In this document: piece by piece, positions 31,591-48,851 of the stretch | Layout of the letters: every line of letters begins with the position of its first letter | Numbering within the stretch: position 1 is the stretch's first letter | Notes under the pieces: generated by a model | Database searches by the model: none | What the model was told of the DNA's origin: nothing | The model's input: the letters and a program-made list of their open reading frames with translations, nothing else | NCBI GenBank assembly: GCA_963744145.1 | Contig: CAVUSO010000001.1 | Location: forward strand, 5,472,001-5,536,000 | Direction: 5' to 3' | DNA: 64,000 bases | Origin: an uncultured cyanobacterium | GTDB lineage: Bacteria > Cyanobacteriota > Cyanobacteriia > Cyanobacteriales > CAWUOF01 | Position numbers and translations under genes: made by a program

Positions 31591-33009
31591 CTAGAAAATC
31601 TGAATATCACTACCAGCCAAATTTCCTCCTGCTAATTGCAGAAAAATTCCACCTTTAAAAGCAACTAAACCAGAGGTCGGATCAAAAAGAATTTGTCCAT
31701 TATTAAGTGAAGTGCCAGAAAAATTACCATTTGCTGGTAAAGCTCCAGGACTACTAATGAACGTATAAGTGCTATTTGCTAAGAAATCAGAAGATAGATC
31801 AATGCGAGAGACTCCAGTTTGGAAACCGGTAATTGTATCAGCCTTAGCTGAGGTCTGTCCAGCACCGATAAATGTCGATGTCGTACCACCAAAGAGAAAT
31901 GTATCAGCCCCATTACCACCAACTAACAGATTACCAGAACCGCGCGGTGCTAACAGATCATTTCCATCACCACCATTTAAAGTTTCTGCACCACTACCAC
32001 CATAAAGTACATCATTACCAGCATCTCCCAACAGGAGAGCTTTTGTATTTATTGCTGTGGCGTTAATGGTATCATCTCCATCACCACCATCGGCAAAAGT
32101 ACCTGATAGCATGACAATATTATCATTCCCAGCATCACCAAAAAATGCTGACGCTGTACCCCAGAGGTAGTCGTTACCTTGTCCTCCATACAAAAAGGCT
32201 CCTGAACCTTGACCGATTAAAGTATCATTACCTTTGTTACCATATAAAGCACCTGCACCAACTAAACAGTCATCACCATCACCACCGTATAGTTGAGCCC
32301 CTGTACCAATAGCAATTAGGGTATCATTACCTAAATCTCCTGATAAAAAGCCATTACCACTACTAAACAAATAATCATCACCTAAACCACCCCAAAGGCT
32401 ATCATTGGCACTACCATAAATAACATCGTTACCTTGGTTGCCATATAAGAAGCCATTACCATCACCCATTAAGGTATCATTACCAATTCCACCTAGCATT
32501 GTGACACTATATGTAGTACCACCTTGAGCTATTAATAAATCGTCACCTAAATCTCCAGATAGAAAAACGTTCCCCGCAGCACCACCCATGATACAATCAT
32601 TGCCTTGACCGCCATAAGCTAGATCTCCATTGCCATTAGCGGTGATGGTATCATTACCAGTATTACCATAAATAACATTTGCGCCTTGTCCGGATATGAT
32701 CAAGTCGTTACCAGGTCCACCGATGAGAGTATCAGTGCTAAATCCGACCAGAGTATCGTCACCCAAATCTCCAGATAAATAATCATTTCCTCCTGTGATC
32801 GATACTTGGAGATAGTCATTACCTTGTCCACCAAATAAAGAATCTCGATGACCTCTCGCAATCAGTGTATCATCCCCTTGATTACCATATAATTTACTAC
32901 CACCAGCAGGATTAGTGGCGACGAAATCATTTCCACCTAGTGCTATGATAGTATCGACTTTAGGGAAAAAACTGATTACGTCATCGCTGTTACTAAGGAA
33001 AGTAGTCAT
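31591..33009 (-). CDS. RTX/hemolysin-type Ca-binding Gly-rich repeat protein
   Basis: Many GxxGxD-x-L nonapeptides; C-terminal DTITGF...IDLS; AGGAG SD before the ATG at 33009. Confidence 0.9.
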   Translation of the reverse strand: MTTFLSNSDDVISFFPKVDTIIALGGNDFVATNPAGGSKLYGNQGDDTLIARGHRDSLFGGQGNDYLQVSITGGNDYLSGDLGDDTLVGFSTDTLIGGPGNDLIISGQGANVIYGNTGNDTITANGNGDLAYGGQGNDCIMGGAAGNVFLSGDLGDDLLIAQGGTTYSVTMLGGIGNDTLMGDGNGFLYGNQGNDVIYGSANDSLWGGLGDDYLFSSGNGFLSGDLGNDTLIAIGTGAQLYGGDGDDCLVGAGALYGNKGNDTLIGQGSGAFLYGGQGNDYLWGTASAFFGDAGNDNIVMLSGTFADGGDGDDTINATAINTKALLLGDAGNDVLYGGSGAETLNGGDGNDLLAPRGSGNLLVGGNGADTFLFGGTTSTFIGAGQTSAKADTITGFQTGVSRIDLSSDFLANSTYTFISSPGALPANGNFSGTSLNNGQILFDPTSGLVAFKGGIFLQLAGGNLAGSDIQIF

Positions 33010-33156
33010 TGTTTGCTCCTTGCTACGCAACCAGCGTAGTTGAATGTTGACAATTGAGCTGAATGGTTAGAAATGGTTGATCATTAAAAAAAATTAATTT
33101 ATCTGTTAAATAAACTTTGATTTTAATTAATTCTTTAATTATTCTTAAATTTTGAT

Positions 33157-34098
33157 TTATCTAACAGATTGTGTTTCTGCATAAGCCGCATAAACTCCTT
33201 GTACATTATACCAATTTAGAAAAATCCGAGCAAGCTCCAAGGCTAATTGTGATTTACCTTGACTAATCAACCATTGTAAAAATGGTGCCATTGTCCGTTC
33301 GTTTATTCTACCTCCTAGGGATAAAATTCCCCATAAGATCCGATGGAATTGGGTCATTTGAATCATCATTCGCACTTCCCAAGTAGGATGTTTTTGATAA
33401 AATAATACCCCCATTCGTCCCCGTTGAATTTCTTTTTCAATCAGACCGGGAATTTGAGTTAAAGTAAAAGGTGGGTGCCAATGATAACCTACTGCTGCTG
33501 GACATTTAATTAATTTTAATCCTAGTTGTTTAAGTCTCACTCCTAGTTCTAAGTCTTCCCAACCATAGAGTTGAAACTGTGGATCGAAAAGTCCAGCTTG
33601 TTCTAACCAGTGACGCGCGATCGCGACGTTTCCAGTCGCAAAATAAGCAGCAGAAAAATCAGTGATTTTATAGGGTTCAGCAGTGGGATTGTCAAAGTTA
33701 CAGGTATTAATTACTGCTCCATAGGTAAAAACCCGATCGCTCCCTAATTTTTTCTTTCCTTGAATTAAAGCATCCCCATGGGCTTGAAGAAAGTTTTCTG
33801 TAACTACTAAATCACTATCAATAAAAATAATTGTATCTCCAATTGCCTGTTCTATTCCTAAATTTCGAGCTATTGCTGGTCCTTGATGTGCTTGAGATAG
33901 CGATCGCAACTGGGGAAACCTGAGTGCATATTCCTGTAACCACTCCACTGTTCCATCTGTAGATCCATCATCTACTACCACCACTTCATATCCAGATACG
34001 GGAGTATCATTGGTAAATAGCTGTCTTGCTAATCCTCCTAAACACTTTTCCAGAATCCCGCGACGATTATAAGTGGGAATAACTATACTAAAAAACAC
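33157..34098 (-). CDS. GT2 family glycosyltransferase
   Basis: IPTYNR, VVDDGSTD, FIDSD and YGWEDLE; GGAGG SD before the GTG at 34098. Confidence 0.92.
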   Translation of the reverse strand: MFFSIVIPTYNRRGILEKCLGGLARQLFTNDTPVSGYEVVVVDDGSTDGTVEWLQEYALRFPQLRSLSQAHQGPAIARNLGIEQAIGDTIIFIDSDLVVTENFLQAHGDALIQGKKKLGSDRVFTYGAVINTCNFDNPTAEPYKITDFSAAYFATGNVAIARHWLEQAGLFDPQFQLYGWEDLELGVRLKQLGLKLIKCPAAVGYHWHPPFTLTQIPGLIEKEIQRGRMGVLFYQKHPTWEVRMMIQMTQFHRILWGILSLGGRINERTMAPFLQWLISQGKSQLALELARIFLNWYNVQGVYAAYAETQSVR

Positions 34099-34219
34099 AG
34101 TACCTCCGCTATAGATATTTTTCAACCCTTTGATTTTAGGTCAAGAATGGGTAAAGTTTAGTAATCAGTGATTTTGATTGCTAGGATTTAGTCAGGGAAG
34201 CATCAGCATGACCAAAGAG

Positions 34220-34268: not shown

Positions 34269-35084
34269 TTAGATGGGCAAATTATTGGGATCGATACCCT
34301 GTGATTTCAAATAAGTTATTAGCTTTTCTTTTTCTTGACGTTCCTGTTCCTTTTCTTGACGTTCCTGTTCCGCACGTTGACGTTCCTGTTCCGCACGTTG
34401 ACGTTCCTGTTCCGCACGTTGACGTTCCTGTTCAATTTTTTCTACAGCCCAAGGTAACAAATTCCCAGCCCGATCCCACCATCGTAACCAATACCCTCTT
34501 CTTCCTTCTTTTATTCCTTTCCAAGTTCCTAAAAATAGTCCCATTACCTCCAACCAATGACGACCATTTTCATCAGGTTGTTTTAGCTCATAGCGCCCAT
34601 TTTCCAGTTGATAATATTCTAATAAACCTCCATCTGGGTCAAAAATTATGTAAAGGGGAACTTGCAATATTTGTTCGTAAAAAAACCATCTTCCCGGTGG
34701 ATAGGTGCGTTTCACTGAATATTCTCCACCTTCTTGATCTGATAAAAATTCCATGACTATCGCTGGTACTTCCCCTTCTAAATGGGGTGTATAGCTTTGA
34801 CGTTCTGCTAAAATCTCTTTTACTGAAGCGATATATACCCAATCTGGGGCTTTGAGTACCAATTGCCCGTTTAATGTGGCACATAGACCAAAGTTGGAAG
34901 CGATTAACATCTGTGGTTGAATCAACCCACTGATTTCTAAACTTTCCCGTAAAGCTCCAGCTAAAAGTGGTTGTCCTGTATTGTCCACTGGTTCATCCTC
35001 TAACTGAAAACCATCAGGTAAGGTTTCCCAAGAAATGACCAGTCCTGTGCTGGGTGATTTGGTTTCATTGAGTAGGGTTGCCAT
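34269..35084 (-). CDS. Uma2 family protein with a C-terminal EQERQRA coiled-coil repeat
   Basis: KAPDW, VMEFLS and WLRWWD; 21-bp tandem repeat at about 34336-34432. Confidence 0.88.
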   Translation of the reverse strand: MATLLNETKSPSTGLVISWETLPDGFQLEDEPVDNTGQPLLAGALRESLEISGLIQPQMLIASNFGLCATLNGQLVLKAPDWVYIASVKEILAERQSYTPHLEGEVPAIVMEFLSDQEGGEYSVKRTYPPGRWFFYEQILQVPLYIIFDPDGGLLEYYQLENGRYELKQPDENGRHWLEVMGLFLGTWKGIKEGRRGYWLRWWDRAGNLLPWAVEKIEQERQRAEQERQRAEQERQRAEQERQEKEQERQEKEKLITYLKSQGIDPNNLPI

Positions 35085-35130: not shown

Positions 35131-36714
35131 TAAGTAGTCGGACAAAAGTAATAGGTACTGTATTAACTTTTGTAAAACGTATGGGTCAAGCAATAAGCTG
35201 GACAAAGTCATCGAAAAATTAGTCCAATCTGGGGAAGATTGGCCAAAGAAGTGGCTGGACAATGGGAGCAAAAAATTAGACTTATTTTGGTAATTAAGGG
35301 GATAAGTGAGGTCGATTTTAGCTTCAAAAAAAACACCCTGATTGTGAAATAATTATAGAGCTAACTTAAAAGTTTGAAGAAAATGTCATCTCCTCCTTTG
35401 AGAATATTTTTAACATCTGCGGAAAATCAAACCTTATGGGAATTAAATAGAGCCGAGGGAGTTCCACTAAGAACAAGAGATTGGGCTGCTGACTTGAGAT
35501 TATCATCAATGGGATGGAAAGTGGAACAGATCGGCAAGTATCTGAACTGGTCAATTAAGACAGTGAGAGCCACAATACATCGTTGGGAAAAACAGGGATT
35601 AGCAGGATTATGGGATGCGCCTCGTCCGGGCAGGAAAAGAAAATGGAGTCAGGCAGATTTGGCAGAAATTGAAAAAAAACTAGAGACAGAGGAACGAGCT
35701 TATAATAGTCGTCAGTTAGTGAAATATCTAGCCCAGGAAAGGCAAGTAAAACTGAGCCAAAGACAGTTGCGTCGAATCCTCAAAAAAAACTATCGGTGGA
35801 AAAGAACGAGAACATCTCTAAAAGGAAAGCAAGACCAGGAAAAAAGAGCAACTAAAAGAAATGATTTAGAGATGTTGGAATTCGCGGCAGCCGCGGGTGA
35901 AATATGTTTAAAATATTTGGATGAATCAGGATTTAGCCTGTGGGCTGAACCTGTATATACCTGGGGGAAAATCGGCCAACAGAAACAGATCAAACAGCCT
36001 AAAAAGAAAGGGAAAAGATTAAATATATGTGGATTTTTGGCCGTGGGAGAAAGCTTTGAATATGGATTAAGTTTTAAGAGTTTTGACAGTAAGAATTATA
36101 TCAAATTAATGGATTGGCAAGCCGCGCAAGCGGAAACTAGATTGAAAGAAACGGGCAAAATAACTGTAATTGTCCAAGACCAATATTCCGTTCACGTAAG
36201 TAAATTGACGAAGAGCAACTATGATCAATGGGAAAAACAAGGATTATATATATTCCTATTATCCAGTTACTCTCCCGAATTAAATCTGATTGAAACGGAG
36301 TGGGAAAGAATCAAAGAAGATGAATTAGCTGGTCAAATGTTTGAGAATGAATATGAATTAACCATCGCGGTAAGAGCAGCAATCGAAGCTCGTCAAACTA
36401 GTAAGGGCTTAGAAGTAAAAAGATTTAGATTTGGTGGTCAGCCTAGCCAGGATGAACAAAAATCCTAATCGGGTTTATTCTAGTTCTAGTCAACCGGAAA
36501 AATTCCATTAATTGTTTAATGAGAGGCTGAGGCAAAACTGACCATATTTATAGTTAATAGAAAATCTGGAAATGCAGTTTTCTTACTCTCTAGTGAAACC
36601 TATTCAGTTGGACGGAGGGAATACTTTTATATGCTTTTCTCTGGTAAATTTGTGGGTCAAATTTACTCTTAAATAAAGTTAACATAGTTAACTTTATTTA
36701 TGTCCGACTACTTA
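35131..36714 (+). mobile_element. IS630-family insertion sequence, copy 1 (1,584 bp including both TA)
   Basis: Ends TA-AGTAGTCGGACA ... TGTCCGACTACT-TA; DDE transposase inside; near-identical copy at 44021-45604. Confidence 0.95.
35383..36468 (+). CDS. IS630 family transposase
   Basis: HTH N-terminus (GL..L.D.PR.GR); DDE residues in YLDESGF, VQDQYSVH and YSPELNLIE. Confidence 0.95.
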   Translation: MSSPPLRIFLTSAENQTLWELNRAEGVPLRTRDWAADLRLSSMGWKVEQIGKYLNWSIKTVRATIHRWEKQGLAGLWDAPRPGRKRKWSQADLAEIEKKLETEERAYNSRQLVKYLAQERQVKLSQRQLRRILKKNYRWKRTRTSLKGKQDQEKRATKRNDLEMLEFAAAAGEICLKYLDESGFSLWAEPVYTWGKIGQQKQIKQPKKKGKRLNICGFLAVGESFEYGLSFKSFDSKNYIKLMDWQAAQAETRLKETGKITVIVQDQYSVHVSKLTKSNYDQWEKQGLYIFLLSSYSPELNLIETEWERIKEDELAGQMFENEYELTIAVRAAIEARQTSKGLEVKRFRFGGQPSQDEQKS

Positions 36715-36760
36715 GGTTTTTGATAAAATTTTAAAGCATAAGCAATGGAAAGTAGTAACT

Positions 36761-38104
36761 ATGGATTTGCAAGGCTTTTTTAAAGCAATAAACCCAACTA
36801 AGACCCTGAAAGTTGAAAATGCTGAGGATCGAAAATATTATATTGACTTTTCCTCAGTGCGAGGTGGTCAGATTATTGAGGAACTTAAGGATCATATTAT
36901 CTTGTTTAGTCCGGATGAACCTACTTGTACTTTATTTACTGGTCATATTGGTTGTGGGAAGTCTACAGAATTATTTTGCTTAAAAGCTGAGTTGGAACAA
37001 GATGGTTTTCATGTTGTGTATTTTGAATCGAGTGAAGATTTGGAATTGACTGATGTGGATATTAGTGATATTTTACTCGCGATCGCACGTCGGATTAGTC
37101 AAAGTTTAGAGAATTTAGAAATTGCCGAACCTAAAAAGTTTAAAGAGTTACTACAAGGTGCTGTTAATGTTTTAAATTCCCAAGTTACGGGAGTTAAGTT
37201 TAAGTTTATGGGTAATGAATTGGGGGTAACTTCCGATCAAGATAAATTTACCCTGGCTTTGGGAATTGGTGAAATTACTACTAAAACAAAAAGTGATCCT
37301 AATCTTCGGGAAAAGCTTAATCAATATTTAGCACCCCAAAAAACTCAACTATTAGATGCTATTAATCGAGAATTGATCGAACCAGCGATCGCGAAGTTAA
37401 AACAATTAGGTAAAAAAGGATTAGTGGTAATTGTCGATAATCTAGATCGTTTAGATAATCGTCAAAAACCCTGGGGGCGATCGCAACCAGAATATCTATT
37501 TGTAGATCAAGGAGAATATTTAACTAAACTGCATTGTCATCTTGTTTATACCATGCCGTTAGCCCTAAAATTCTCCAATGATTATGGTAATCTTACCCAA
37601 AGATTTCTTCAAGAACCGAAAGTGTTACCGATGGTGACGGTAAAATTAAAAGATGGTGGTGAATGTGAAGAAGGGATTATGTTACTCAAAAAAATGGTGA
37701 TGGCACGAGTATTTCCCGATCGCCAGGAGTCGGAACGTTTTGAAGCTATTACTGAAGTTTTTGAGGATATAGAAAGCTTAAATCGTCTTTGTTATATGAG
37801 TGGGGGTCATGTTCGAGATTTGTTAAGATTATTGACTGATTGGCTGACAAAAGGAAAAAAATTTCCCCTCTCTCGGAAAACTTTAGAAGAATTAATTCGT
37901 CAGCGTTATAATAATATGATTATGCCAATTTCTGATCAAGAGTGGGATTTGTTGCGACAAGTTAAGCAACGTCAGCGAGTTACTGATGATGATGGATATC
38001 AAAAATTGATTCGGAGTCGGTTTGTATTTGAATATCATTATGATGAGGAGATTTGGTTTGATCTTAATCCTATTTTAGCTGAAGCTAAGGAATTGCAGCT
38101 ATGA
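36761..38104 (+). CDS. P-loop ATPase (AAA+/STAND-like), partner of the downstream giant protein
   Basis: Walker A GHIGCGKS, Walker B VVIVDNLD, SGGHVRDLLRL; stop overlaps the next ATG (ATGA at 38101-38104). Confidence 0.88.
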   Translation: MDLQGFFKAINPTKTLKVENAEDRKYYIDFSSVRGGQIIEELKDHIILFSPDEPTCTLFTGHIGCGKSTELFCLKAELEQDGFHVVYFESSEDLELTDVDISDILLAIARRISQSLENLEIAEPKKFKELLQGAVNVLNSQVTGVKFKFMGNELGVTSDQDKFTLALGIGEITTKTKSDPNLREKLNQYLAPQKTQLLDAINRELIEPAIAKLKQLGKKGLVVIVDNLDRLDNRQKPWGRSQPEYLFVDQGEYLTKLHCHLVYTMPLALKFSNDYGNLTQRFLQEPKVLPMVTVKLKDGGECEEGIMLLKKMVMARVFPDRQESERFEAITEVFEDIESLNRLCYMSGGHVRDLLRLLTDWLTKGKKFPLSRKTLEELIRQRYNNMIMPISDQEWDLLRQVKQRQRVTDDDGYQKLIRSRFVFEYHYDEEIWFDLNPILAEAKELQL

Positions 38105-41100
38105 CTGAAGATATCTCTAGCGAAAATCAGAATGTTTTAGAGGATATATCCTGGACAATTACTGTTTCTCAGGGTGAGTTTAGGTTACTCTTAATTCGTT
38201 GTAATTATCTGAGTTTACGTGATGAGTTATCTCAGCAATTACAACAAGTTTGTCCGCTGGAAATTCAGGTTCTAAATCTCAAAGCATCTGAACAAACTCT
38301 CTATAATAGGATTCAGCTAGAATTAGGGACAACCCAGCCAAATGCACTGATGGTTTTTGGCTTAGAAATGGTTGATAATTTGGAGCATTTGTTGTCTGCT
38401 GCTAATCAAGTCAGGGAAGAATTTCAGAAAAATTTTCATTTTCCCTTATTATTATGGGTTAATGATGAAGTCTTTATCCAATTAGTTAGGGTTGCACCGG
38501 ATTTTGAAAGTTGGGCAAATACTACTGAGTTGCTGATTAGTCAGGAGCAATTAGGAAATTTGCTGAAAGACAGAGCTACAGAATGGTTTAACGATCGGTT
38601 AATTATAACTCAGAGTGAAAGTTTAGAGTTACAAGCGGAATTGACCTCGGCTTATCGGGATTTACAGAGATATAATGAAGTTTTAGATCAGGAATTAGTA
38701 GCAAATTTAGAGTCTTTGCTTGGTAGTGTTAAATTTATTAATAATAAAATAGATGAAGCTTTAGCACATTATCAAAAAGCTGCGGATATTTGGCGGGAAA
38801 TTAATCAATTAGATCGATTAGGAATAGTGCTGAGAGAGATGACACTTTGCTATTATCAAAAAGCTCTTCCTGATCGTGATATAGAAGATGCTCATTGGCA
38901 GCTAACTAAGAATTATCTTCTGCAATCTATTGAAATTTTACAAGCCGCTAATCGTTTAGATTTAATTGCTAATTGCTTGTTAAATTTTGGGATAATTTTA
39001 CGGCGATTAAAAGATTGGCAATTATTGGAAAGTTTGGCAAGGCAATCTTTGCAGTTGCACCAAGATAAAACTAAATCTCTGCAATTAGCACAGGATTATG
39101 GTTTTTTAGCTGAAGTAGCTTTAGCTCGTCAAGATTGGTTAGAAGCAAAAAAATTAGCTGAAAATACTATTACGTTATTAAACTCAATTACAGATGAGAA
39201 TAGTTCTGATTTAATTCGATCTTATTTGGTTAGTCAATGTTACTTTATTTTAGCACAGGTACAACAAAATTTAGGTGAAACTGCAATAGCTATTGCAAAA
39301 TTGGAAAAAGCTAAAAAAATCAGTAGTCCTGAATATGATACTCAATTTTATCTCGAAATCATCAATTATTTACAAAAACTTTATTTTGAACAACACCAAT
39401 ATCAATTAGCTTTTGAAATTAAATTAGAACGGCAATCGATTGAGCAACAATATGGATTGCGAGCGTTTATTGGTGCAGGAAGACTTCAAGCTCAAAAGCA
39501 AGCAAAATTAACTATTACTCAAGATAAAAGTGTTGAAAATGTAGCTTCGGAAATAGTTGCTTCTGGGCGGGATTTGGATGTAAATAAGTTAATTCAGCGG
39601 ATTGGTGAACCTAGTTATAAGCTAATTGTAATTCATGGACAATCCGGTGTGGGGAAGAGTTCTCTGGTAAATGGTGGTTTGATTCCAGCATTGAAGCGGA
39701 AAAGTATTGGTATTCAGGATGTTTTATCTATAGCAATGCGGGTTTATACTGATTGGATTAGAGAATTAGGACGGTTATTGGGAGAAGCTTTATTAGCAAG
39801 AAAAATTGTTGATGAGAAAATTTTGAGTTTGACTTCTCGAGATATATCTGAAGAGGATATTTTAACCATAATTATTGAACAGTTACAGAAAAGTGAGTCA
39901 TATAATCTGCGACCAGTATTGATTTTTGACCAGTTTGAAGAGTTCTTTTTTGTCTATTCTAATCCTGTTGACAGAATCGCATTTTCCCAATTTTTGGGAA
40001 ATTGTCTCAAGATTGGTTATGTCAAGGTAATTTTATCCCTTCGCGAAGATTATTTGCACTATTTGCTGGAATGGGAAAATCAGGATAGTATGAATAGCAT
40101 TGGTAATGATATTCTTTGCAAAAATATTCGCTATCATTTAGGAAATTTTTCACCTGATGCAGCTACAACAATTATTCGGAATTTAACGGAGAGAGCAAAT
40201 TTTAAGTTAGATGAAGTATTAATTAAGGAATTGGTAAAGGATTTAGCCGGAGAATTAGGTGAAGTGCGCCCAATTGAATTGCAAATAGTGGGAGCGCAAC
40301 TGCAAACAGAAAATATTACTACTTTGGCTCAATATCAAAATTGTGGTGAAAATGCAACGGAAGAATTAGTGAAACGCTATTTAGCAGAAGTAGTAAATGA
40401 CTGCGGTAAGGAAAATGAGCAAATTGCTGAGTTGGTACTATTTTTATTAACAGATGAAAAAATAAATCGACCTCTAAAAACTCGCACTGAATTAGATAGA
40501 GATGTGCAAGCATTGGCAACAAATTTAAGTTTAGATATTAATGGATTAGATTTAGTATTAAATATTTTTGTTGGTTCTGGGTTGGTTTTACTTTTACCGG
40601 AAAAGCCAGAAGATCGCTATCAGTTAGTGCATGATTATTTAGCAGCATTTATTCGTCAGCAAAAACCGAAGTTAAATGAGATAATTGCAGAACTAGAAAA
40701 GGAAAAAGAGAAAAATCGAATTGCCCAGGAAAAACTGCAACAATCTGAAGAAACAAAAAAAATCTTGGAAACAGCGAATAAAACTGCTAAACAACGGATT
40801 AAAATCGGTTCTGCTTTCTTAGGAATATCATTATTAGTGGCAGTAGGAACGGGAATATATGCTACTCAAAACCTTAGAGAAACAAAGGAAATTGGAAGAT
40901 TAGAACTAGAAGGGGTGAGTATTTTGAGACAATTTGAATCTGGGCAATCCGACTCTGACCAAATGGAAACATTGGTGTCAGCAATGCGGGCTGGACAAGA
41001 TTTGAAATCCCTAGTGAAAAATCGTCCTCTGAAAGAATATCCTATCGTTAGTCCGCTTTTAGCTTTAGAGACGATTCTAGATAATATTCGGGAAAAAAGT

Positions 41101-43956
41101 GAACTGAAAGGTGATCAGATTTCTGTCAATAGTAACAATTTTAGTCCTCAATGCGATCGCATTGTCACCACTTCAGATAACAAAACTGCCCGAGTCTGGG
41201 ATTTATCGGGGAAATTGCTCGCCGAACTCAAAGGTCATCAGATTTCTGTCAATAGTAACAATTTTAGTTCTCAATGCGATCGCATTGTCACTACTTCAGA
41301 CGACAAAACTGCCCGAGTCTGGGATTTATCGGGGAAATTACTCGCCGAACTTAAAGGTCATCATGGTCGGGTCTATAGTGCCAATTTTAGTCCTCAAGGC
41401 GATCGCATTGTCACTACTTCAGATGACAAAACTGCCCGAGTCTGGGATTTATCGGGAAAATTGCTGGTCCAACTCAAAGGTCATCATGGTCGGGTCTATA
41501 GTGCCAATTTTAGTCCTCAAGGCGATCACATTGTCACTACTACTTCAGATGACAAAACTGCCCAAGTCTGGGATTTATCGGGAAAATTGCTGGCCGAACT
41601 CAAAGGTCATCATGGCCGGGTCAATAGTGCCAATTTTAGTCCTCAAGGCGATCGCATTGTCACTACTTCAGATGACAAAACTGCCCGAGTCTGGGATTTA
41701 TCGGGGAAATTGCTGGCCGAACTCAAAGGTCATCAGAGTTCTTTCAATAGTGCTAATTTTAGTCCTCAAGGCGATCGTATTGTCACTACTTCAGATGACA
41801 AAACTGCCCGAGTTTGGGATTTATCGGGGAAATTGCTCGCTGAACTCAAAGGTCATCAGGATTATATCAATAGTGCCAATTTTAGTCCTCAAGGCGATCG
41901 CATTGTCACTACTTCAGATGACAAAACTGCCCGAGTCTGGGATTTATCGGGGAAATTGCTGGCTGAACTCAAAGGTCATCAGGATTGGGTCAGAAGTGCC
42001 AATTTTAGTCCTCAAAGTGATCGCATTGTCACTACTTCAGATGACAAAACTGCCCGAGTCTGGGATTTATCAGAGAAATTGCTGGCCGAACTCAAAGGTC
42101 ATCAGAGTTCTTTCAATAGTGCTAATTTTAGTCCTCAAGGCGATCGCATTGTCACTACCGCTTTAAATGACACTTTAAATGACAAAACTGCCCGAGTCTG
42201 GGATTTATCGGGGAAATTGCTGGCTGAACTCAAAGGTCATCAGGATTGGGTCAGAAGTGCCAATTTTAGTCCTCAAGGTGATCGCATTGTCACTACTGCG
42301 TTCAATGACAAAACTGCCCGAGTTTGGGATTTATCGGGGAAATTGCTGGCTGAACTCAAAGGTCATCAGGATTGGGTCAGTAGTGCCAATTTTAGTCCTC
42401 AAGGTGATCGCATTGTCACTACTGCGTTCAATGACAAAACTGCCCGAGTTTGGGATTTATCGGGGAAATTGCTCGCCGAACTCAAAAGTCCTCAGAATGG
42501 GGTCAGTAGTGCCAATTTTAGTCCTCAAGGTGATCGCATTGTCACTACCGCTTTAAATGACAAAATTGCCCGAGTCTGGGATTTATCGGGGAAATTACTC
42601 GCCGAACTCAAAGGTCATCAAAATTCGGTTTTAAGTGCCAATTTTAGTCCTCAAGGTAATCGCATTGTCACTACCGCTTTAAATGACAAAACTGCCCGAG
42701 TCTGGGATTTATCAGGGAAATTGCTCGCTGAACTCAAAGGCCCTCAGTATGGTCCTCAGCATTCGGTCATTAAAGCCAATTTTAGTCCTCAAGGTGATCA
42801 CATTGTCACCATTTCTTTTGACAAAACTGCCCGAGTCTGGGATTTATCGGGGAAATTGCTCGCTGAACTTAAAGGTCATCACGATTATGTTAATAGTGCC
42901 AATTTTAGTCCTCAAGGCGATCGTATTTTCACCACTTTACATGACACTGCCCAAGTCTGGGATTTATCAGGTAGACAATTAGCAGAATTCAAACAAGATT
43001 ACGATCATAGCAAATTCGGTGACGGTAAAGCCAACTTTAGTCCAGATGGCAATCTGATCATCTTCCTACTTGGAAACACAGCAAAAATTTGGCAAATAAA
43101 AAGTGTTGGTAACTTAGATTTACTATTAGAACGGGGTTGCAAATGGTTAAATTATTATCTGATCAATCATCCCAAAGAATTAGAGAAATTAGAAATATGT
43201 CAAAACGACTCTAACAAATTTGAGGCCGCACCATTTATGTTTGAGGAAGGAGAAATTGAAGCTAGAAGTGGTAATATTGATAATGCAGTTTCTAATTTCA
43301 GCATAGCGTTAAAGTGGAATCCCAAATTAAATTTTGATCCCAATATAAAAGCACAGCAATTAGCAAAAGCTAATAATCTAGTTAAGCAAGGAGAAGAGTT
43401 AGCACAAACTGGTGATATCAAAAATATTAACCCTGCAATTAGTCTTTTTCAACAAGCCGTAAAACTTGACCCCAATTTAGATTTTCAGCCAGAGCAAAAA
43501 GCTAAGGAAATAGTAGCTGGTAATCTAGTTTATAAAGGGGAAGAGTTAGCACAAACTGGTAACATAAAAGACGCAGTTACTATTTTTAAACAAGCATTAA
43601 AACTGGACCCTAGTTTAGATTTTCAACCAGAGCAAAAAGCTAAGGAAATGGTAGCGGGCAATCTAGTTTATAAAGCGGCAGAATTAGCAAAAACTGGTAA
43701 TATAAAAGACGCAGTTACTATTTTTAAACAAGCATTAAAACTGGACCCTAGTTTAGATTTTCAACCAGAGCAAAAAGCTAATGAGGTACTAGCTAATGAT
43801 CTAGTTAATAAAGGGGAGAAATTAGCAAAAACTGGTAATATAAAAGACGCAGTTACTATTTTTAAACAAGCAATAAAACTTGACCCTAATTTAGATTTTC
43901 AGCCAGAGCAAAAAGCTAAGGAAATAGCAGAGTCTGTTAAGAATAGCGAAATGTAA
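38101..43956 (+). CDS. 1,951-aa protein: N-terminal domain, TPR-like region, STAND (nSTAND1-like) NTPase, TM helix, about 16 WD40 repeats, TPR-like repeats
   Basis: HGQSGVGKSS, LIFDQFEE, SLREDY and YQLVHDYL; TM IGSAFLGISLLVAVGTGIYA; GH...WD repeats. Confidence 0.9.
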   Translation: MTEDISSENQNVLEDISWTITVSQGEFRLLLIRCNYLSLRDELSQQLQQVCPLEIQVLNLKASEQTLYNRIQLELGTTQPNALMVFGLEMVDNLEHLLSAANQVREEFQKNFHFPLLLWVNDEVFIQLVRVAPDFESWANTTELLISQEQLGNLLKDRATEWFNDRLIITQSESLELQAELTSAYRDLQRYNEVLDQELVANLESLLGSVKFINNKIDEALAHYQKAADIWREINQLDRLGIVLREMTLCYYQKALPDRDIEDAHWQLTKNYLLQSIEILQAANRLDLIANCLLNFGIILRRLKDWQLLESLARQSLQLHQDKTKSLQLAQDYGFLAEVALARQDWLEAKKLAENTITLLNSITDENSSDLIRSYLVSQCYFILAQVQQNLGETAIAIAKLEKAKKISSPEYDTQFYLEIINYLQKLYFEQHQYQLAFEIKLERQSIEQQYGLRAFIGAGRLQAQKQAKLTITQDKSVENVASEIVASGRDLDVNKLIQRIGEPSYKLIVIHGQSGVGKSSLVNGGLIPALKRKSIGIQDVLSIAMRVYTDWIRELGRLLGEALLARKIVDEKILSLTSRDISEEDILTIIIEQLQKSESYNLRPVLIFDQFEEFFFVYSNPVDRIAFSQFLGNCLKIGYVKVILSLREDYLHYLLEWENQDSMNSIGNDILCKNIRYHLGNFSPDAATTIIRNLTERANFKLDEVLIKELVKDLAGELGEVRPIELQIVGAQLQTENITTLAQYQNCGENATEELVKRYLAEVVNDCGKENEQIAELVLFLLTDEKINRPLKTRTELDRDVQALATNLSLDINGLDLVLNIFVGSGLVLLLPEKPEDRYQLVHDYLAAFIRQQKPKLNEIIAELEKEKEKNRIAQEKLQQSEETKKILETANKTAKQRIKIGSAFLGISLLVAVGTGIYATQNLRETKEIGRLELEGVSILRQFESGQSDSDQMETLVSAMRAGQDLKSLVKNRPLKEYPIVSPLLALETILDNIREKSELKGDQISVNSNNFSPQCDRIVTTSDNKTARVWDLSGKLLAELKGHQISVNSNNFSSQCDRIVTTSDDKTARVWDLSGKLLAELKGHHGRVYSANFSPQGDRIVTTSDDKTARVWDLSGKLLVQLKGHHGRVYSANFSPQGDHIVTTTSDDKTAQVWDLSGKLLAELKGHHGRVNSANFSPQGDRIVTTSDDKTARVWDLSGKLLAELKGHQSSFNSANFSPQGDRIVTTSDDKTARVWDLSGKLLAELKGHQDYINSANFSPQGDRIVTTSDDKTARVWDLSGKLLAELKGHQDWVRSANFSPQSDRIVTTSDDKTARVWDLSEKLLAELKGHQSSFNSANFSPQGDRIVTTALNDTLNDKTARVWDLSGKLLAELKGHQDWVRSANFSPQGDRIVTTAFNDKTARVWDLSGKLLAELKGHQDWVSSANFSPQGDRIVTTAFNDKTARVWDLSGKLLAELKSPQNGVSSANFSPQGDRIVTTALNDKIARVWDLSGKLLAELKGHQNSVLSANFSPQGNRIVTTALNDKTARVWDLSGKLLAELKGPQYGPQHSVIKANFSPQGDHIVTISFDKTARVWDLSGKLLAELKGHHDYVNSANFSPQGDRIFTTLHDTAQVWDLSGRQLAEFKQDYDHSKFGDGKANFSPDGNLIIFLLGNTAKIWQIKSVGNLDLLLERGCKWLNYYLINHPKELEKLEICQNDSNKFEAAPFMFEEGEIEARSGNIDNAVSNFSIALKWNPKLNFDPNIKAQQLAKANNLVKQGEELAQTGDIKNINPAISLFQQAVKLDPNLDFQPEQKAKEIVAGNLVYKGEELAQTGNIKDAVTIFKQALKLDPSLDFQPEQKAKEMVAGNLVYKAAELAKTGNIKDAVTIFKQALKLDPSLDFQPEQKANEVLANDLVNKGEKLAKTGNIKDAVTIFKQAIKLDPNLDFQPEQKAKEIAESVKNSEM
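41100..42990 (+). repeat. 15 near-identical ~123-bp WD40-coding tandem repeats
   Basis: Recurrent aaaactgcccgagtctgggatttatcggggaaattgct...ctcaaaggtcat unit. Confidence 0.95.
43370..43930 (+). repeat. Four ~138-bp TPR-like coding repeats
   Basis: LVxK.E.LA.TG.IK...F.QA.KLDP.LDFQPEQKA occurs four times. Confidence 0.9.
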
Positions 43957-44020
43957 CTTTTATTTAAGAAAATTTCAGGAACAGGTTAATTCCTGCGATC
44001 GCACTAAGTTAAATAATTGC

Positions 44021-45604
44021 TAAGTAGTCGGACAAAAGTAATAGGTACTGTATTAACTTTTGTAAAACGTATGGGTCAAGCAATAAGCTGGACAAAGTCA
44101 TCGAAAAATTAGTCCAATCTGGGGAAGATTGGCCAAAGAAGTGGCTGGACAATGGGAGCAAAAAATTAGACTTATTTTGGTAATTAAGGGGATAAGTGAG
44201 GTCGATTTTAGCTTCAAAAAAAACACCCTGATTGTGAAATAATTATAGAGCTAACTTAAAAGTTTGAAGAAAATGTCATCTCCTCCTTTGAGAATATTTT
44301 TAACATCTGCGGAAAATCAAACCTTATGGGAATTAAATAGAGCCGAGGGAGTTCCACTAAGAACAAGAGATCGGGCTGCGACCTTGAGATTATCATCAAT
44401 GGGATGGAAAGTGGAACAGATCGGCAAGTATCTGAACTGGTCAATTAAGACAGTGAGAGCCACAATACATCGTTGGGAAAAACAGGGATTAGCAGGATTA
44501 TGGGATGCGCCTCGTCCGGGCAGGAAAAGAAAATGGAGTCAGGCAGATTTGGCAGAAATTGAAAAAAAACTAGAGACAGAGGAACGAGCTTATAATAGTC
44601 GTCAGTTAGTGAAATATCTAGCCCAGGAAAGGCAAGTAAAACTGAGCCAAAGACAGTTGCGTCGAATCCTCAAAAAAAACTATCGGTGGAAAAGAACGAG
44701 AACATCTCTAAAAGGAAAGCAAGACCAGGAAAAAAGAGCAACTAAAAGAAATGATTTAGAGATGTTGGAATTCGCGGCAGCCGCGGGTGAAATATGTTTA
44801 AAATATTTGGATGAATCAGGATTTAGCCTGTGGGCTGAACCTGTATATACCTGGGGGAAAATCGGCCAACAGAAACAGATCAAACAGCCTAAAAAGAAAG
44901 GGAAAAGATTAAATATATGTGGATTTTTGGCCGTGGGAGAAAGCTTTGAATATGGATTAAGTTTTAAGAGTTTTGACAGTAAGAATTATATCAAATTAAT
45001 GGATTGGCAAGCCGCGCAAGCGGAAACTAGATTGAAAGAAACGGGCAAAATAACTGTAATTGTCCAAGACCAATATTCCGTTCACGTAAGTAAATTGACG
45101 AAGAGCAACTATGATCAATGGGAAAAACAAGGATTATATATATTCCTATTATCCAGTTACTCTCCCGAATTAAATCTGATTGAAACGGAGTGGGAAAGAA
45201 TCAAAGAAGATGAATTAGCTGGTCAAATGTTTGAGAATGAATATGAATTAACCATCGCGGTAAGAGCAGCAATCGAAGCTCGTCAAACTAGTAAGGGCTT
45301 AGAAGTAAAAAGATTTAGATTTGGTGGTCAGCCTAGCCAGGATGAACAAAAATCCTAATCGGGTTTATTCTAGTTCTAGTCAACCGGAAAAATTCCATTA
45401 ATTGTTTAATGAGAGGCTGAGGCAAAACTGACCATATTTATAGTTAATAGAAAATCTGGAAATGCAGTTTTCTTACTCTCTAGTGAAACCTATTCAGTTG
45501 GACGGAGGGAATACTTTTATATGCTTTTCTCTGGTAAATTTGTGGGTCAAATTTACTCTTAAATAAAGTTAACATAGTTAACTTTATTTATGTCCGACTA
45601 CTTA
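44021..45604 (+). mobile_element. IS630-family insertion sequence, copy 2
   Basis: Same ends and length as 35131-36714; offset 8,890 bp. Confidence 0.95.
44273..45358 (+). CDS. IS630 family transposase
   Basis: Matches copy 1 except DRAATL versus DWAADL. Confidence 0.95.
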   Translation: MSSPPLRIFLTSAENQTLWELNRAEGVPLRTRDRAATLRLSSMGWKVEQIGKYLNWSIKTVRATIHRWEKQGLAGLWDAPRPGRKRKWSQADLAEIEKKLETEERAYNSRQLVKYLAQERQVKLSQRQLRRILKKNYRWKRTRTSLKGKQDQEKRATKRNDLEMLEFAAAAGEICLKYLDESGFSLWAEPVYTWGKIGQQKQIKQPKKKGKRLNICGFLAVGESFEYGLSFKSFDSKNYIKLMDWQAAQAETRLKETGKITVIVQDQYSVHVSKLTKSNYDQWEKQGLYIFLLSSYSPELNLIETEWERIKEDELAGQMFENEYELTIAVRAAIEARQTSKGLEVKRFRFGGQPSQDEQKS

Positions 45605-45637
45605 AACTTAGTTTAGTAATAATACAACCAGGTAATT

Positions 45638-45973
45638 ATGTCTGAACCAGATTTAATCAATAAACATTCTCTTCATGAAGCGATCGCCGATATATGGTGT
45701 GAGATTCAACAAACACCAGCAGAACACTGGCCCAATTTACTTCAGATGATACGGTTATTTCGTGAAAGCGTGACCAAGACACCTGCACCATCAGATGCTT
45801 GGAAAAAAGCTATGGATGAAATTAACAATCCTGATCCAATAGTAGAAGCAGTGCGACAGAAAGCTTTAGGCAAATTATCCAGAAAATGGGAAGAAGAAGG
45901 AGATGAGGAGGAGCAGACTGAAACTGCTAAAATTCTCTCTAAAGCATTAGATGAAAATCCCATATCTATCTAA
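45638..45973 (+). CDS. Putative antitoxin-like protein, copy 1 (no adjacent toxin)
   Basis: Highly similar to 46810-47160, which is coupled to a PIN gene; acidic C-terminal part. Confidence 0.65.
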   Translation: MSEPDLINKHSLHEAIADIWCEIQQTPAEHWPNLLQMIRLFRESVTKTPAPSDAWKKAMDEINNPDPIVEAVRQKALGKLSRKWEEEGDEEEQTETAKILSKALDENPISI

Positions 45974-46047: not shown

Positions 46048-46461
46048 ATGCCTGCTAAGGATATTTACCATGATGCGGTTAAGAATGCTTTAAGTAAGGA
46101 TGGTTGGACAATTACTGCCGATCCTTATTTTATCATATACAAAAAATTAAAACTCATTGCCGATCTTGGTGCTGAACGTCCATTTTTAGCAGAGAAACAG
46201 ATGGAGAAAATTGTTGTTGAGGTTAAGAGTTTTCTTAATCCATCTTTTATTTATGATCTTGAACAAGCTCTCGGTCAGTATATTCTCTATCGTAATTTTC
46301 TCAAAAGAACTGCACCAGAGAGACAACTCTATTTAGCAATGAGTCAGAGGATTCATAACATTTATTTTGATGAAACAATCCAAATTGTTGTTGAGGAAAA
46401 TCAGCTTAAATTAATTATTGTAGATCCAGATAAGGAGGTCATCACAAAATGGATAAATTAA
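46048..46461 (+). CDS. xisH: XisH family protein
   Basis: [35 protein letters not shown] and ALGQY..Y. Confidence 0.93.
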
Positions 46462-46790
46462 ACCATTATCGTTCATTGATTCAGAAAATTCTCACCGAGT
46501 ATGATCAACTTTGTTCCCAAGTTGCGATTCCTGATGTAGAAATGCTTTTGGCTTTTGATGAACAAAGAGATCAATATTTATGGTTTCAAGTTGGATGGAC
46601 TCCAACCGAAAGAATTAAAGGAATTTCAGTTCACATTCGGATTAAAAATGAGAAGATTTACATTGAGGAAGATTGGACAGAAGAAGGGATGGCAAATGAG
46701 TTATTAAGATTAGGTATTCCTCCCGAAGATATAGTGTTAGCATTTCAGCCTCCCGAGGTGAGAAAGTTTACTGAGTTCGCTATAAAATAA
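46449..46790 (+). CDS. xisI: XisI family protein
   Basis: [22 protein letters not shown]...[12 protein letters not shown]. Confidence 0.93.
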
Positions 46791-46809
46791 CCCAAAATAG
46801 GTAATAATT

Positions 46810-47160
46810 ATGTCTGAATCTGATTTAATAAATAAACATTCTCTCAACGAAGCGATCGCAGAATTCCTGCGTGAGATTCAACAAACACCAGAAGAATATT
46901 GGCCCAATTTATTGCAGATGATACGGCTATTTCGTGCCAGTGTGACCAAAGCCCCTGCACCATCAGATGCTTGGAAAAAAGCTATGGATGAAATTAACAA
47001 TCCCGATCCAATAGTAGAAGCAGCGCGACAGAAAGCTTTAGGCGAATTATTCAGAAAATGGACAGAGGAGGGAGATGAAGAGGAGCAAAAAGAAACTGGG
47101 GATTATCTCCGTCGGGTACTTGATGAAGACCGTCTTTCTAATCGACCTTTGTTTTCATGA
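46810..47160 (+). CDS. Putative antitoxin, copy 2
   Basis: Stop overlaps the PIN gene ATG (ATGA); ends in LDEDRLSNRPLFS. Confidence 0.7.
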   Translation: MSESDLINKHSLNEAIAEFLREIQQTPEEYWPNLLQMIRLFRASVTKAPAPSDAWKKAMDEINNPDPIVEAARQKALGELFRKWTEEGDEEEQKETGDYLRRVLDEDRLSNRPLFS

Positions 47161-47609: not shown

Positions 47610-47641
47610 GGAAACTATTTTAGTAAGGTGGGTTTTATCCA

Positions 47642-47812
47642 ATGTCTGAACCAGATTTAACCAATAAACATCCTCTTCATGACGCGATCGCAGAGATATC
47701 GTGTGAGATTCAACAAATACCAGCTGAACACTGGCCTAATTTACTTCAGATTATACGGCTATTTCGTGAAAGTATGACCAAAGCATCTGGATCATCAGAT
47801 CCTTGGAAATGA
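47642..47812 (+). pseudogene. Truncated third copy of the antitoxin-like gene (56 aa)
   Basis: MSEPDLTNKHPLHDAIAEISCEIQQIPAEHWPNLLQIIRLFRESMTKASGSSDPWK*; homology stops at a solo MITE TIR. Confidence 0.8.
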
Positions 47813-47861
47813 ACTGAACCGTATTGATATATAGCTGATCTGTTGGTTGCATAAATGGTGA

Positions 47862-47932
47862 GGGCAAAGCATTTCGGTCATATTCTCCTTCGTTTGGGCG
47901 ATAATTTCTTCGCCGAAATGCTTTGCCCCTAC
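47862..47932. repeat. REP-like hairpin
   Basis: GGGCAAAGCATTTCGG/CCGAAATGCTTTGCCC followed by CTAC. Confidence 0.75.
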
Positions 47933-48003
47933 AGGAATGAAAATTAAATAACTTGATGATTCATGTATAGTTGCGATCCGATCGCTCTGATCGCAACTAT
48001 ATA

Positions 48004-48200: not shown

Positions 48201-48851
48201 TCAAGAAATGGGATTTTTATTGATCTTTACCCAAGCTCGAAAAGCTTTCATTGTTTTATTTCTCCCCTCAATTTTGCTGCGTTCTAAATACTCAGAAATC
48301 ATATTGATTAGGGGAAATCCTGGAAAATGAGGACTTTCATGCTGTTGAACATATTGTTCCGATTTTAATACATTAATTTCTAATTTATTTCCATCAAAAC
48401 GCCATAATTCTCTCACACCTAAAGCTTCATAATTATTAAATCTTGTCCGAGAAGTTAGATCAATTTCAATCGCTAAATCTGGTGGTGGATCTATGGTTAA
48501 ATCAAGGCGCGATTTCCCTCGAACTGTTGCTTCGTTTTCGATATAAAAACAATCATCAGCTTCTATTCCCTGATTCATGAGTTCGCTTTTAAAAGTAGTC
48601 GATCCCAAACTCCTAAATTCAATATCTAGTTCTTCCAGCATAACTTTGATAAAATCGCCAATCATGATTTTATCATCTTCTTGTTCTGGTAGAGGCACCA
48701 TGATTTCTAAGACTCCCTGACTGTAATTAATTCGACTTCCTCGTTTTTCACTAAATTCTTTTAGTAGCTGTTCATACATTTTCCAGCTAACGTTATTGAG
48801 CAGGAGTTGCTGACCAGGAGAGATCATTATTTGTTTAAGTTGTACTTGCAT
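48201..48851 (-). CDS. Uma2 family putative endonuclease
   Basis: VSW..YE.LL, GSTTF, PPDLAIEID and Y..LGV.ELW. Confidence 0.9.
   Translation of the reverse strand: MQVQLKQIMISPGQQLLLNNVSWKMYEQLLKEFSEKRGSRINYSQGVLEIMVPLPEQEDDKIMIGDFIKVMLEELDIEFRSLGSTTFKSELMNQGIEADDCFYIENEATVRGKSRLDLTIDPPPDLAIEIDLTSRTRFNNYEALGVRELWRFDGNKLEINVLKSEQYVQQHESPHFPGFPLINMISEYLERSKIEGRNKTMKAFRAWVKINKNPIS

Follow-up and report, generated by a model that had tools for sequence, protein, structure and literature searches.

Two adjacent genes on the forward strand of a 64,000-nucleotide stretch of DNA from an uncultured cyanobacterium of the Cyanobacteriales (GenBank assembly GCA_963744145.1, contig CAVUSO010000001.1, positions 5,472,001 to 5,536,000; hereafter the window) constitute a widespread, conserved two-gene module of cyanobacteria. 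Gene A encodes a P-loop ATPase. Gene B encodes a much larger protein in which an α/β N-terminal domain (Nd), a tetratricopeptide-repeat (TPR) array and an nSTAND1 NTPase are followed by a predicted transmembrane (TM) helix and a WD40 propeller. We consider it highly probable that the products of genes A and B are paired and dock on one another, and gene B is very probably anchored in the membrane. An immune or non-self role, which is suggested by the relatives of the pair and by its context, is slightly favoured. For the whole chain, in which the pair would be a conflict receptor of two NTPases resembling the nucleotide-binding leucine-rich-repeat (NLR) receptors and serving immunity or non-self recognition, the balance of probability is even.

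The pair was first pointed out in a prediction made by a model from the sequence alone (the original prediction). Both open reading frames (ORFs) were found exactly where it had placed them, at 36761..43956. The features of the pair are as follows.

36761–38104, + strand: gene A, 447 amino acids (aa), ORF of a soluble, putatively AAA+/STAND-like ATPase
36941–36964, + strand: gene A Walker A motif GHIGCGKS, residues 61–68
Gene A residues 222–229, + strand: Walker-B-like motif VVIVDNLD
38087–38092, + strand: Shine–Dalgarno-like AAGGAA, 9–14 nt 5′ of the gene B ATG
38101–38104, + strand: gene junction, ATGA overlap (gene B ATG 38101–38103, gene A TGA 38102–38104)
38101–43956, + strand: gene B, ORF of 1951 aa
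38101–38595, + strand: gene B α/β N-domain Nd, residues 1–165, predicted docking site of gene A (AlphaFold2, AF2)
38611–39450, + strand: gene B N-terminal TPR array, residues ~171–450 (TPR_12, Protein Data Bank profile, Foldseek)
39565–40692, + strand: gene B nSTAND1 NTPase module, residues 489–864 (PF20703)
40693–40797, + strand: gene B K/E-rich helix, coiled-coil candidate, residues ~865–899 (read from the sequence)
40798–40866, + strand: gene B predicted TM helix IKIGSAFLGISLLVAVGTGIYAT, residues ~900–922 (hydropathy)
40867–41097, + strand: gene B helical linker from TM helix to propeller, residues ~923–999 (segment matching)
41098–42975, + strand: gene B 16 WD40 repeats, residues ~1000–1625 (Pfam and repeat analysis)
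43342–43953, + strand: gene B TPR-like tail of 46-aa (138-nt) repeats (repeat families; four TPR_2 stretches)

Conservation of the gene pair

Related loci were collected by a pattern scan with confirmation by tblastn, using one genome per species. At least 592 loci were confirmed, mainly in filamentous, multicellular cyanobacteria, where similar pairs had been expected. Pair statistics were obtained from the best 80 of these loci, in which ORFs were searched with segments of gene B. A same-strand gene for Nd, TPRs and nSTAND1 lies downstream of 77 of the 82 ATPase genes (75 of the 80 loci); of the remaining loci, three stop at a contig edge and two (L075 and L077) are without a partner. The four-nucleotide overlap seen in the window recurs in 16 of the 77 related pairs, and in 68 of them the gap is 500 nt or less. 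Together with the ATGA overlap and the AAGGAA motif of the window copy, this regular downstream partner bears out the claim that the ATPase is coupled to a giant protein.

Tandem duplicate pairs are present at L013 (1482–7627 and 9995–14244) and L052 (2272–8855 and 9151–13631), and the occurrence of multiple paralogous pairs per genome suggests a diversification of specificities. Clustering of the ORFs of the 80 loci gave no third conserved gene and no effector. The recurrent neighbours were either antisense artefacts in repeats or the products of Nostoc-clade synteny in 15–18 Nostoc loci, comprising the large and small subunits of an aconitase-family enzyme, a ChlI-like AAA protein and two unnamed upstream ORFs. 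At L074, at L033 and in the first pair of L013 the partner is shortened and a WD40 ORF lies separately downstream of it; these may be split or frameshifted genes.

Gene A: sequence, fold and relatives

The product of gene A was described at the outset as an active-looking P-loop ATPase, and its Walker A motif and the VVIVDNLD segment are indeed intact. Its Pfam matches are weak (KAP_NTPase, AAA_22, AAA_16 and ATPase_2). PF07693 (KAP) scores 23.7 bits against a cut-off of 20, a marginal match that covers only profile positions 4–165 of 293, and no TM candidate, a trait of the KAP family, was found in gene A, where the highest 19-residue hydropathy is 0.87. A conserved SGGHxRDLL helix begins at residue 347, and the C-terminal part is winged-helix-like in the model. 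In a profile search of the Protein Data Bank (PDB) the best informative match of the gene A family was RdrA of RADAR (8fnu; E 1.2e-4, positions 22–220); the other type of match was to signal-recognition-particle receptors, through the P-loop only. Foldseek returned HslU, Apaf-1, SSO1545, Cdc6/Orc1 and RdrA with TM-scores of 0.2–0.3, which, for a low-confidence model, serve as a lead only. The modelling suggests an AAA+/STAND-like fold.

The best 120 homologues listed share 68–81% identity with gene A and are nearly all cyanobacterial. The family comprises at least 4094 proteins at E ≤ 1e-3 (among 8000 scored candidates), and the related 50%-identity clusters number 2561 at E ≤ 1e-3 and 283 at E ≤ 1e-30. 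Among relatives with 40–44% identity, fusions were found to TIR domains (P0182 and P0192), to CHAT and TRADD-like-N domains (P0169), to an α/β hydrolase (P0194) and to AAA_16 with TPRs (P0152 and P0166). In the accessible parts of two surveys, TIR, caspase-like and TRADD-N domains are effectors or adaptors of predicted counter-invader systems in multicellular bacteria (PMC8195603; PMC7159879).

Gene B: domain anatomy

Residues 1–488 of gene B were modelled with AF2 from an alignment of 43 homologous rows, giving a predicted local distance difference test (pLDDT) of 89.9 and a predicted TM-score (pTM) of 0.85. In this model Nd is an α/β domain with the order α0-β1-α1-β2-α2-β3-α3-β4-α4-β5-α5 over residues 7–163, without a P-loop; G25, L29, C34 and R105 are invariant. 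The claim of an N-terminal α/β region lacking a Walker A motif therefore stands, the sole Walker A of gene B being GQSGVGKS at residue 513. The accompanying suggestion that this region may be a dead ATPase gained no support: Nd has no profile similarity to the gene A family or to the nSTAND1 core, with hhalign probabilities of 0.3% and 1%, respectively. The α/β order of the secondary structure does not by itself decide the fold. Neither the Nd of the window copy nor that of 43 relatives matched a Pfam family, apart from scattered chance matches. The TPR part alone was matched when the PDB profile search or Foldseek was applied to the Nd–TPR region, and an ESM Atlas search with Nd was uninformative, returning only unnamed cyanobacterial clusters of ~190 aa.

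The TPR-like helices anticipated after Nd were recovered as matches to TPR_12 and, by Foldseek and the PDB profile search, to the TPRs of LGN and kinesin light chain; the profile search of the N-terminal part also matched the TPRs of AfsR. The next module is a STAND-type NTPase, as had been proposed. PF20703 matches it with 101.1 bits (cut-off 27.1; E 1.4e-28), its Walker B is the FDQFEE motif, and the motifs G-S-G-x-G-K and F-D-Q-F-E-E do not vary among 29 relatives. The charged coiled-coil candidate was found in the sequence as the K/E-rich helix, which terminates in the basic segment KTAKQRIK. Beyond the TM helix, the linker was matched in 14 relatives with the CCTM query segment, TM-less relatives included.

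About 16 WD40 repeats and further TPR-like repeats had been counted in the C-terminal half, and 16 WD40 repeats and a tail of 46-aa repeats were found there; Pfam detects at least 13 WD40 stretches and C-terminal TPR_2. The WD40 units have a mean pairwise identity of 0.79 (14 units), and at the DNA level units of 123–126 nt are 87–96% identical among the best copies. Variation is focused on the four residues after GH and on the TTS/TTAxN loop. Two off-frame ORFs on the + strand overlie the WD40 region (41111–42166, 351 aa, and 42179–42556, 125 aa); off-frame and antisense ORFs recur in the WD40 regions of related loci and are artefacts of stop-free repeats.

Family members carry the labels 'ribosome assembly protein 4' and 'eIF2A-related protein', which were set aside as WD40-driven names. 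The non-repeat parts match no housekeeping family, so that the match to a characterised housekeeping function envisaged in the original prediction did not materialize. An N-terminal effector or adaptor domain, a trait of canonical tripartite STAND and NLR proteins, was not found in gene B, where residues 1–165 have no Pfam match and the remainder of the N-terminal part is TPR. Its only PADLOC match, HEAT-ARM_XIII, is repeat-driven.

Predicted docking of gene A on Nd

Modelling of the ATPase with the N-terminal ~150 residues of gene B had been recommended as a check. For the complex prediction, the Nd–TPR alignment was folded with the gene A family alignment, and three controls were included. 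The interface score (interaction prediction score from aligned errors, ipSAE) was 0.79 (0.78–0.79 in three runs), compared with 0.00 for the best of the three controls. Of 157 solved complexes 116 attain a value of 0.79, as do two of 215 mismatched pairs; these counts are only approximate here because our own alignments were used. The runs agreed in at least 95% of contacts, with a partner pLDDT of at least 83.

On the Nd side the predicted interface is formed by residues 11–33, 99–109 and 122–143, with the conserved residues F27, L29, R105, E106, F108, D122, S137 and W138. On the gene A side it comprises a conserved N-terminal motif (residues 3–14), the P-loop (63–64), the Walker B region (227–232) and the SGGHxRDLL helix (352–366). 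Since the P-loop and Walker B region take part, Nd is predicted to cover the nucleotide-binding face of gene A. In the model Nd sits where the neighbouring protomer of an AAA+ ring would, and it may block or complete the site, R105 being invariant. Conserved Nd residues off the modelled interface (C34, N35, Y36, G87 and E89, at strand ends) could be a ligand site, which is speculation.

Two natural fusion proteins provide independent support for the coupling of gene A with Nd. In P0125, Nd (6–150) precedes the ATPase (163–604), and in P0269 the ATPase precedes Nd. The domain order of P0125 is opposite to the gene order, so this protein is not a read-through artefact. Genomic or physical coupling, the absence of which was considered beforehand, is therefore indicated along three lines: the 77 of 82 ATPase genes with a downstream partner, the predicted docking and the Nd–ATPase fusions.

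Membrane topology and variable C-terminal modules

TM segments were called from Kyte–Doolittle hydropathy (19-residue segments, threshold ≥ 1.6) and from comparison within the family. Residues ~900–922 are the only hydrophobic segment downstream of the gene B NTPase. A hydrophobic peak near residue 815 was rejected as a TM segment; it lies inside nSTAND1 and occupies the same place in homologues.

Of 71 partners surveyed for the helix, 12 were left out (11 whose nSTAND1 was incomplete or that contained runs of N, and one cut short by the end of its contig), leaving 59 that could be evaluated. A hydrophobic 19-residue segment directly follows nSTAND1 in 51 of these. It is succeeded by WD40 repeats in 39 and by a short unnamed tail in two; six, in which no more than 15 residues come after the helix, are classed as tail-anchored and four are cut by the contig end. 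The eight TM-less partners include five with WD40 repeats. The tail-anchored partners (926–993 aa) end 2–5 residues past the helix and occur at L013 (11347–14244), L032, L051, L054, L066 and L073. In the 15 residues flanking the helix on either side, Lys and Arg average 4.9 upstream and 1.96 downstream, and the upstream count is the higher in 49 of 51 helices, as expected from the positive-inside rule for a helix with its N-terminus in the cytoplasm (N-in). All 39 proteins with both helix and WD40 repeats have a single TM segment. One helix and a charge bias of this kind are features of a type-II single-pass protein, in which the C-terminal part would be exported.

A profile search with Nd gave 244 matches at E ≤ 1e-3, and C-terminal modules were compared in the 120 matches listed. 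The module is variable among these, with WD40 in most. Other modules among the listed matches are CHASE2 (P0282, P0337, P0341, P0359 and P0383), Ser/Thr kinase (P0360, P0386 and P0387), HisKA with HATPase_c (P0382), adenylate/guanylate cyclase (P0276) and TPR (P0373). In the CHASE2 forms the TM helix leads into the extracytoplasmic CHASE2 domain, which is followed by two or three more TM segments. In the kinase forms a weaker hydrophobic segment lies eight residues beyond the TM helix and precedes an active-looking kinase with HRDIK and DFG motifs, an arrangement that we read as a TM hairpin. The TM helix is absent from the forms that carry a histidine kinase or a cyclase. From their sequences, the sister architectures appear to keep ATP-requiring modules on the cis side and to place an extracytoplasmic sensor after one TM segment. 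If the same topological rule applies to gene B, its propeller is on the trans side (periplasm or thylakoid lumen), and we think this placement probable. The single TM helix claimed for gene B is thus supported by its one hydrophobic segment, by the helices and N-in bias of the 51 of 59 relatives, and by the CHASE2 domains that follow the same helix.

Genomic context

The pair is bracketed by two IS630-family insertion sequence (IS) copies in the same orientation.

35131–36714, + strand: IS630-family copy 1, 1584 bp, with a DDE_3 transposase at 35374–36468
44021–45604, + strand: IS630-family copy 2, 1584 bp

The copies are four mismatches apart, encode a DDE_3 transposase of 364 aa and have perfect 14-bp terminal inverted repeats with TA at both ends. 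The spacers measure 46 bp between copy 1 and the gene A start and 64 bp between the gene B stop and copy 2. By its sequence the bracketed pair looks like a composite transposon, although the TA ends fit two separate insertions too. IS630-family elements duplicate a TA target, and a shared outer duplication is therefore indistinguishable from that of two separate insertions.

Scans of 36300–44300 were uninformative, with 26 promoter-like sites (23.9 expected) and three terminator-like sites (5.2 expected). No tRNA genes that might mark integration were found in the 64-kb window. The window is chromosomal cyanobacterial DNA, with genes for a ClpC-like protein, signal peptidase, PucC and XisH/XisI and several Uma2 genes; the immediate neighbours of the pair are the IS630 transposases, Uma2 and XisH/XisI. 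The G+C content of the 5′ half of the pair is 0.34–0.35, compared with ~0.39 in the surroundings.

Several further features surround the bracketed pair. After IS copy 2, three direct repeats of ~300 nt (45633–45932, 46805–47104 and 47637–47936; the second and third 86% and 61% identical to the first) overlap unnamed ORFs of 111, 116 and 150 aa that flank the XisH/XisI pair (46048–46790), and these ORFs may be a small paralogous gene family. Four genes of the Uma2 family, which are putatively restriction endonuclease-like, lie within 28 kb (20745–21305, 28561–29139, 34269–35084 and 48201–48851), an abundance typical of cyanobacterial genomes. The third of these (34269–35084, minus strand), with a weak Uma2 domain, contains the 21-nt unit TTGACGTTCCTGTTCCGCACG five times in tandem at 34314–34439. 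Upstream of the pair, 31591–33030 encodes a 479-aa protein with RTX/hemolysin-type calcium-binding repeats, and its gene adjoins that of a family-2 glycosyltransferase (33157–34125).

Elsewhere, plasmid-borne pairs were found in nine records (Nostoc, Calothrix and Acaryochloris), with a weak match of 25% identity in Acidisarcina. Nostoc sp. UHCC 0302 has copies on three plasmids. On Acaryochloris marina pREB2 (L081, 127434–146729) the pair lies between HicA/HicB and RelE/ParE toxin–antitoxin genes, and the region also codes for a NACHT-domain protein, a pentapeptide-repeat protein and two tyrosine recombinases. It looks like a mobile 'conflict island'; of two plasmid regions viewed, one had toxin–antitoxin and integrase genes as neighbours of the pair.

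Comparison with known systems

Avs and bacterial NACHT (bNACHT) proteins combine an NTPase with a repeat sensor and a presumed oligomerization switch, a tripartite logic that they have in common with gene B. Gene B differs from them in its predicted membrane anchor, in the second ATPase gene and in the absence of a fused nuclease, protease or TIR domain. The fungal HET-E and NWD-type NACHT–WD40 proteins function in allorecognition. Relative to these, gene B has nSTAND1 rather than NACHT, no HET effector, and an additional TM helix and partner ATPase. Plant sensor and helper NLRs likewise form one receptor unit from two linked NTPase genes, an analogy for which no homology is claimed. Unlike either member of a plant pair, gene A is without a sensor or effector domain, and it is predicted to bind a dedicated docking domain.

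Avs proteins are summarized in the accessible part of PMC10907252. The definition of the nSTAND1 family comes from work on predicted counter-invader systems in multicellular bacteria (Kaur et al., 2021, PMC8195603); gene B shares with these systems the NTPase module and the C-terminal superstructure-forming repeats. The systems in the accessible part of that paper carry an effector or an EAD/Death-like adaptor at the N-terminus, whereas gene B has Nd and TPRs at this position; the predicted docking of a separate, linked ATPase and the TM helix between NTPase and repeats also set gene B apart from them. Hu et al. (2017, PMC5587647), in the part available, use an identity threshold of 0.7 to define a class of 'highly repetitive' WD40 proteins whose hotspot sites are variable; gene B exceeds this threshold at 0.79, with units defined differently from the eight-contiguous-repeat rule.

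Gene A is only weakly similar to RdrA (RADAR; 8fnu, 8hra) and is half its size, and the pair has no adjacent gene for an RdrB adenosine deaminase; a third conserved gene was likewise not found among the best 80 loci (of at least 592). Similarly, no MoxR or vWA gene accompanies the pair as in the ternary iSTAND/MoxR–vWA systems (Kaur et al., 2020, PMC7159879), and the STAND motifs of gene B are intact, unlike those of the inactive STAND protein. The closest concept is that of the receptor-like type-II single-TM ParA immune proteins (PCTM and TIR-ParA) proposed in bioRxiv 10.64898/2026.10.19.760177, where, in the accessible part, a constant cytoplasmic NTPase is joined through one TM segment to a variable extracytoplasmic sensor and the proteins are enriched in multicellular bacteria. 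Their NTPase is a SIMIBI ParA protein as opposed to AAA+/STAND here, and the accessible part describes neither a second ATPase partner nor a WD40 array.

In the open literature, subscription papers lying outside the scope of the search, no experiment on the pair was found, as had been anticipated, and no prior description of the pair, the docking domain or the topological rule. The nSTAND1 and STAND–WD40 proteins as such are known.

Proposed mechanism and alternative explanations

In the mechanism that we propose, gene A would be the constant partner docked on the Nd of gene B, and a single type-II (N-in) TM helix would anchor gene B in the membrane, so that its variable C-terminal module would project into the periplasm or thylakoid lumen. 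Binding of a ligand by the WD40 propeller would be relayed to the nSTAND1 switch by way of the TM and charged helices. Nucleotide-dependent oligomerization of gene B would then cluster or release the docked A subunits, and the output would be delivered by these subunits or by clustered TM helices; assembly or release of gene A and clustering of the TM helices are both candidates. A conflict role is supported by the TIR, CHAT/TRADD-N and hydrolase fusions, the match to RdrA, the WD40 hotspots, the plasmid neighbours and the origin of the nSTAND1 definition in predicted counter-invader systems. In its most specific form the proposal is of a transmembrane NLR, in which a hypervariable WD40 propeller outside the cytoplasm senses non-self, nSTAND1 is the switch and the docked AAA+ protein is the executor. 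The propeller would be located either periplasmically or on the surface of the septum or cell, and its targets would be phage parts or foreign or neighbour-cell proteins. We put forward this form, with its location and targets, only tentatively.

A number of observations weigh against a conflict receptor of this kind. No effector domain was detected in gene A or B by Pfam or PADLOC, the expectation of no nuclease, TIR or caspase in the pair having proved correct, and no system model of PADLOC-DB v2 (Avs, bNACHT or others) matched the pair. The hoped-for identification of a known defence system thus failed, the only gene A matches being a partial one to PDC-S20 (E 1.7e-8) and one to mad8 (2.9e-4). 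The cyclase, histidine-kinase and Ser/Thr-kinase tails resemble signal-transduction outputs and not immune effectors. The complex of gene A with Nd is a prediction, and its score expresses the confidence of a model and is not a measurement of binding. The AF2 model of gene A (21 close homologues) is poor, with a pLDDT of 59, which makes the fold assignment weak. The pair statistics come from the best 80 of the loci, and the IS copy that ends 46 bp before gene A may have deprived the pair of its native promoter.

A first alternative, which we hold to be unlikely, is ordinary environmental signal transduction in place of immunity. Gene A with Nd, TPRs and nSTAND1 would be an ATP-dependent switch connecting a sensor to interchangeable outputs, and the WD40 copy would sense or scaffold a physiological partner in the periplasm or cytoplasm. 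STAND NTPases include the regulators MalT and AfsR, and the TPRs of gene B match those of AfsR. CHASE2 (five), Ser/Thr kinase (three), HisKA with HATPase_c (one) and cyclase (one) among the listed family members would suit such a switch, as would the lack of an effector domain in either gene and the housekeeping genes that are the chromosomal neighbours in the window and at the Nostoc loci. It fits less well with the fusion of close gene A relatives to TIR, CHAT/TRADD-N and hydrolase domains, and with the pattern of hypervariable WD40 sites, which is typical of recognition under diversification. Also in favour of a conflict receptor over a physiological switch are the multiple copies per genome, the tandem duplicate pairs at L013 and L052 and the carriage on plasmids, with toxin–antitoxin genes and integrases in one of the two regions viewed.

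A second alternative holds that the helix does not span the membrane, being peripheral or buried, so that all of gene B is cytoplasmic like other bacterial STAND–WD40 proteins. TM calls here derive only from hydropathy and family comparison, and the helix of gene B is moderate, with a Kyte–Doolittle value of 1.82 over 19 residues. Moreover, five of the 44 WD40-bearing relatives are without the helix and keep the linker and propeller, which implies that the module can work in the cytoplasm. These points count against the transmembrane receptor, yet the non-spanning alternative appears improbable given the excess of upstream Lys and Arg in 49 of 51 helices, the hydropathy of 2.0–3.5 of the helix in many relatives, the existence of tail-anchored forms and the coherence of the architecture rule across the CHASE2, kinase, cyclase and histidine-kinase forms.

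Membrane-disrupting outputs are known for STAND and NLR assemblies, for example the plant ZAR1 resistosome. That the TM helix is itself the effector, bundled by nSTAND1 oligomerization into a pore that kills or arrests the cell while the N-terminal TPR array senses with gene A and the C-terminal repeats are accessory, would explain why six of 59 partners are tail-anchored yet keep gene A, Nd, TPRs and nSTAND1, why TM-less variants bear an enzymatic domain at the same position and why no other effector is present, but it is quite improbable, as a large hypervariable WD40 module after 39 of 51 helices is hard to see as accessory, the helix serves in the CHASE2 variants as the opening TM segment of an ordinary sensor topology, and one glycine-rich helix is poorly suited to forming a pore.

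Implications

For experimenters, the pair offers a defined predicted interface with named residues, natural swap variants (CHASE2, kinase, cyclase, histidine kinase and tail anchor) that separate sensor from output, and a hypervariable propeller suited to the mapping of specificity. If it is a signalling switch only, it would still represent a two-NTPase architecture, as yet uncharacterized and abundant in a phylum of ecological importance. NLR and STAND immune receptors are by definition intracellular sensors. If the transmembrane receptor is correct, the NLR concept would be extended to trans-membrane sensing in bacteria, with a bacterial fusion of surface-receptor sensing and NLR-type signalling through a relay of two ATPases, and multicellular cyanobacteria would have a testable model of phage and non-self recognition.

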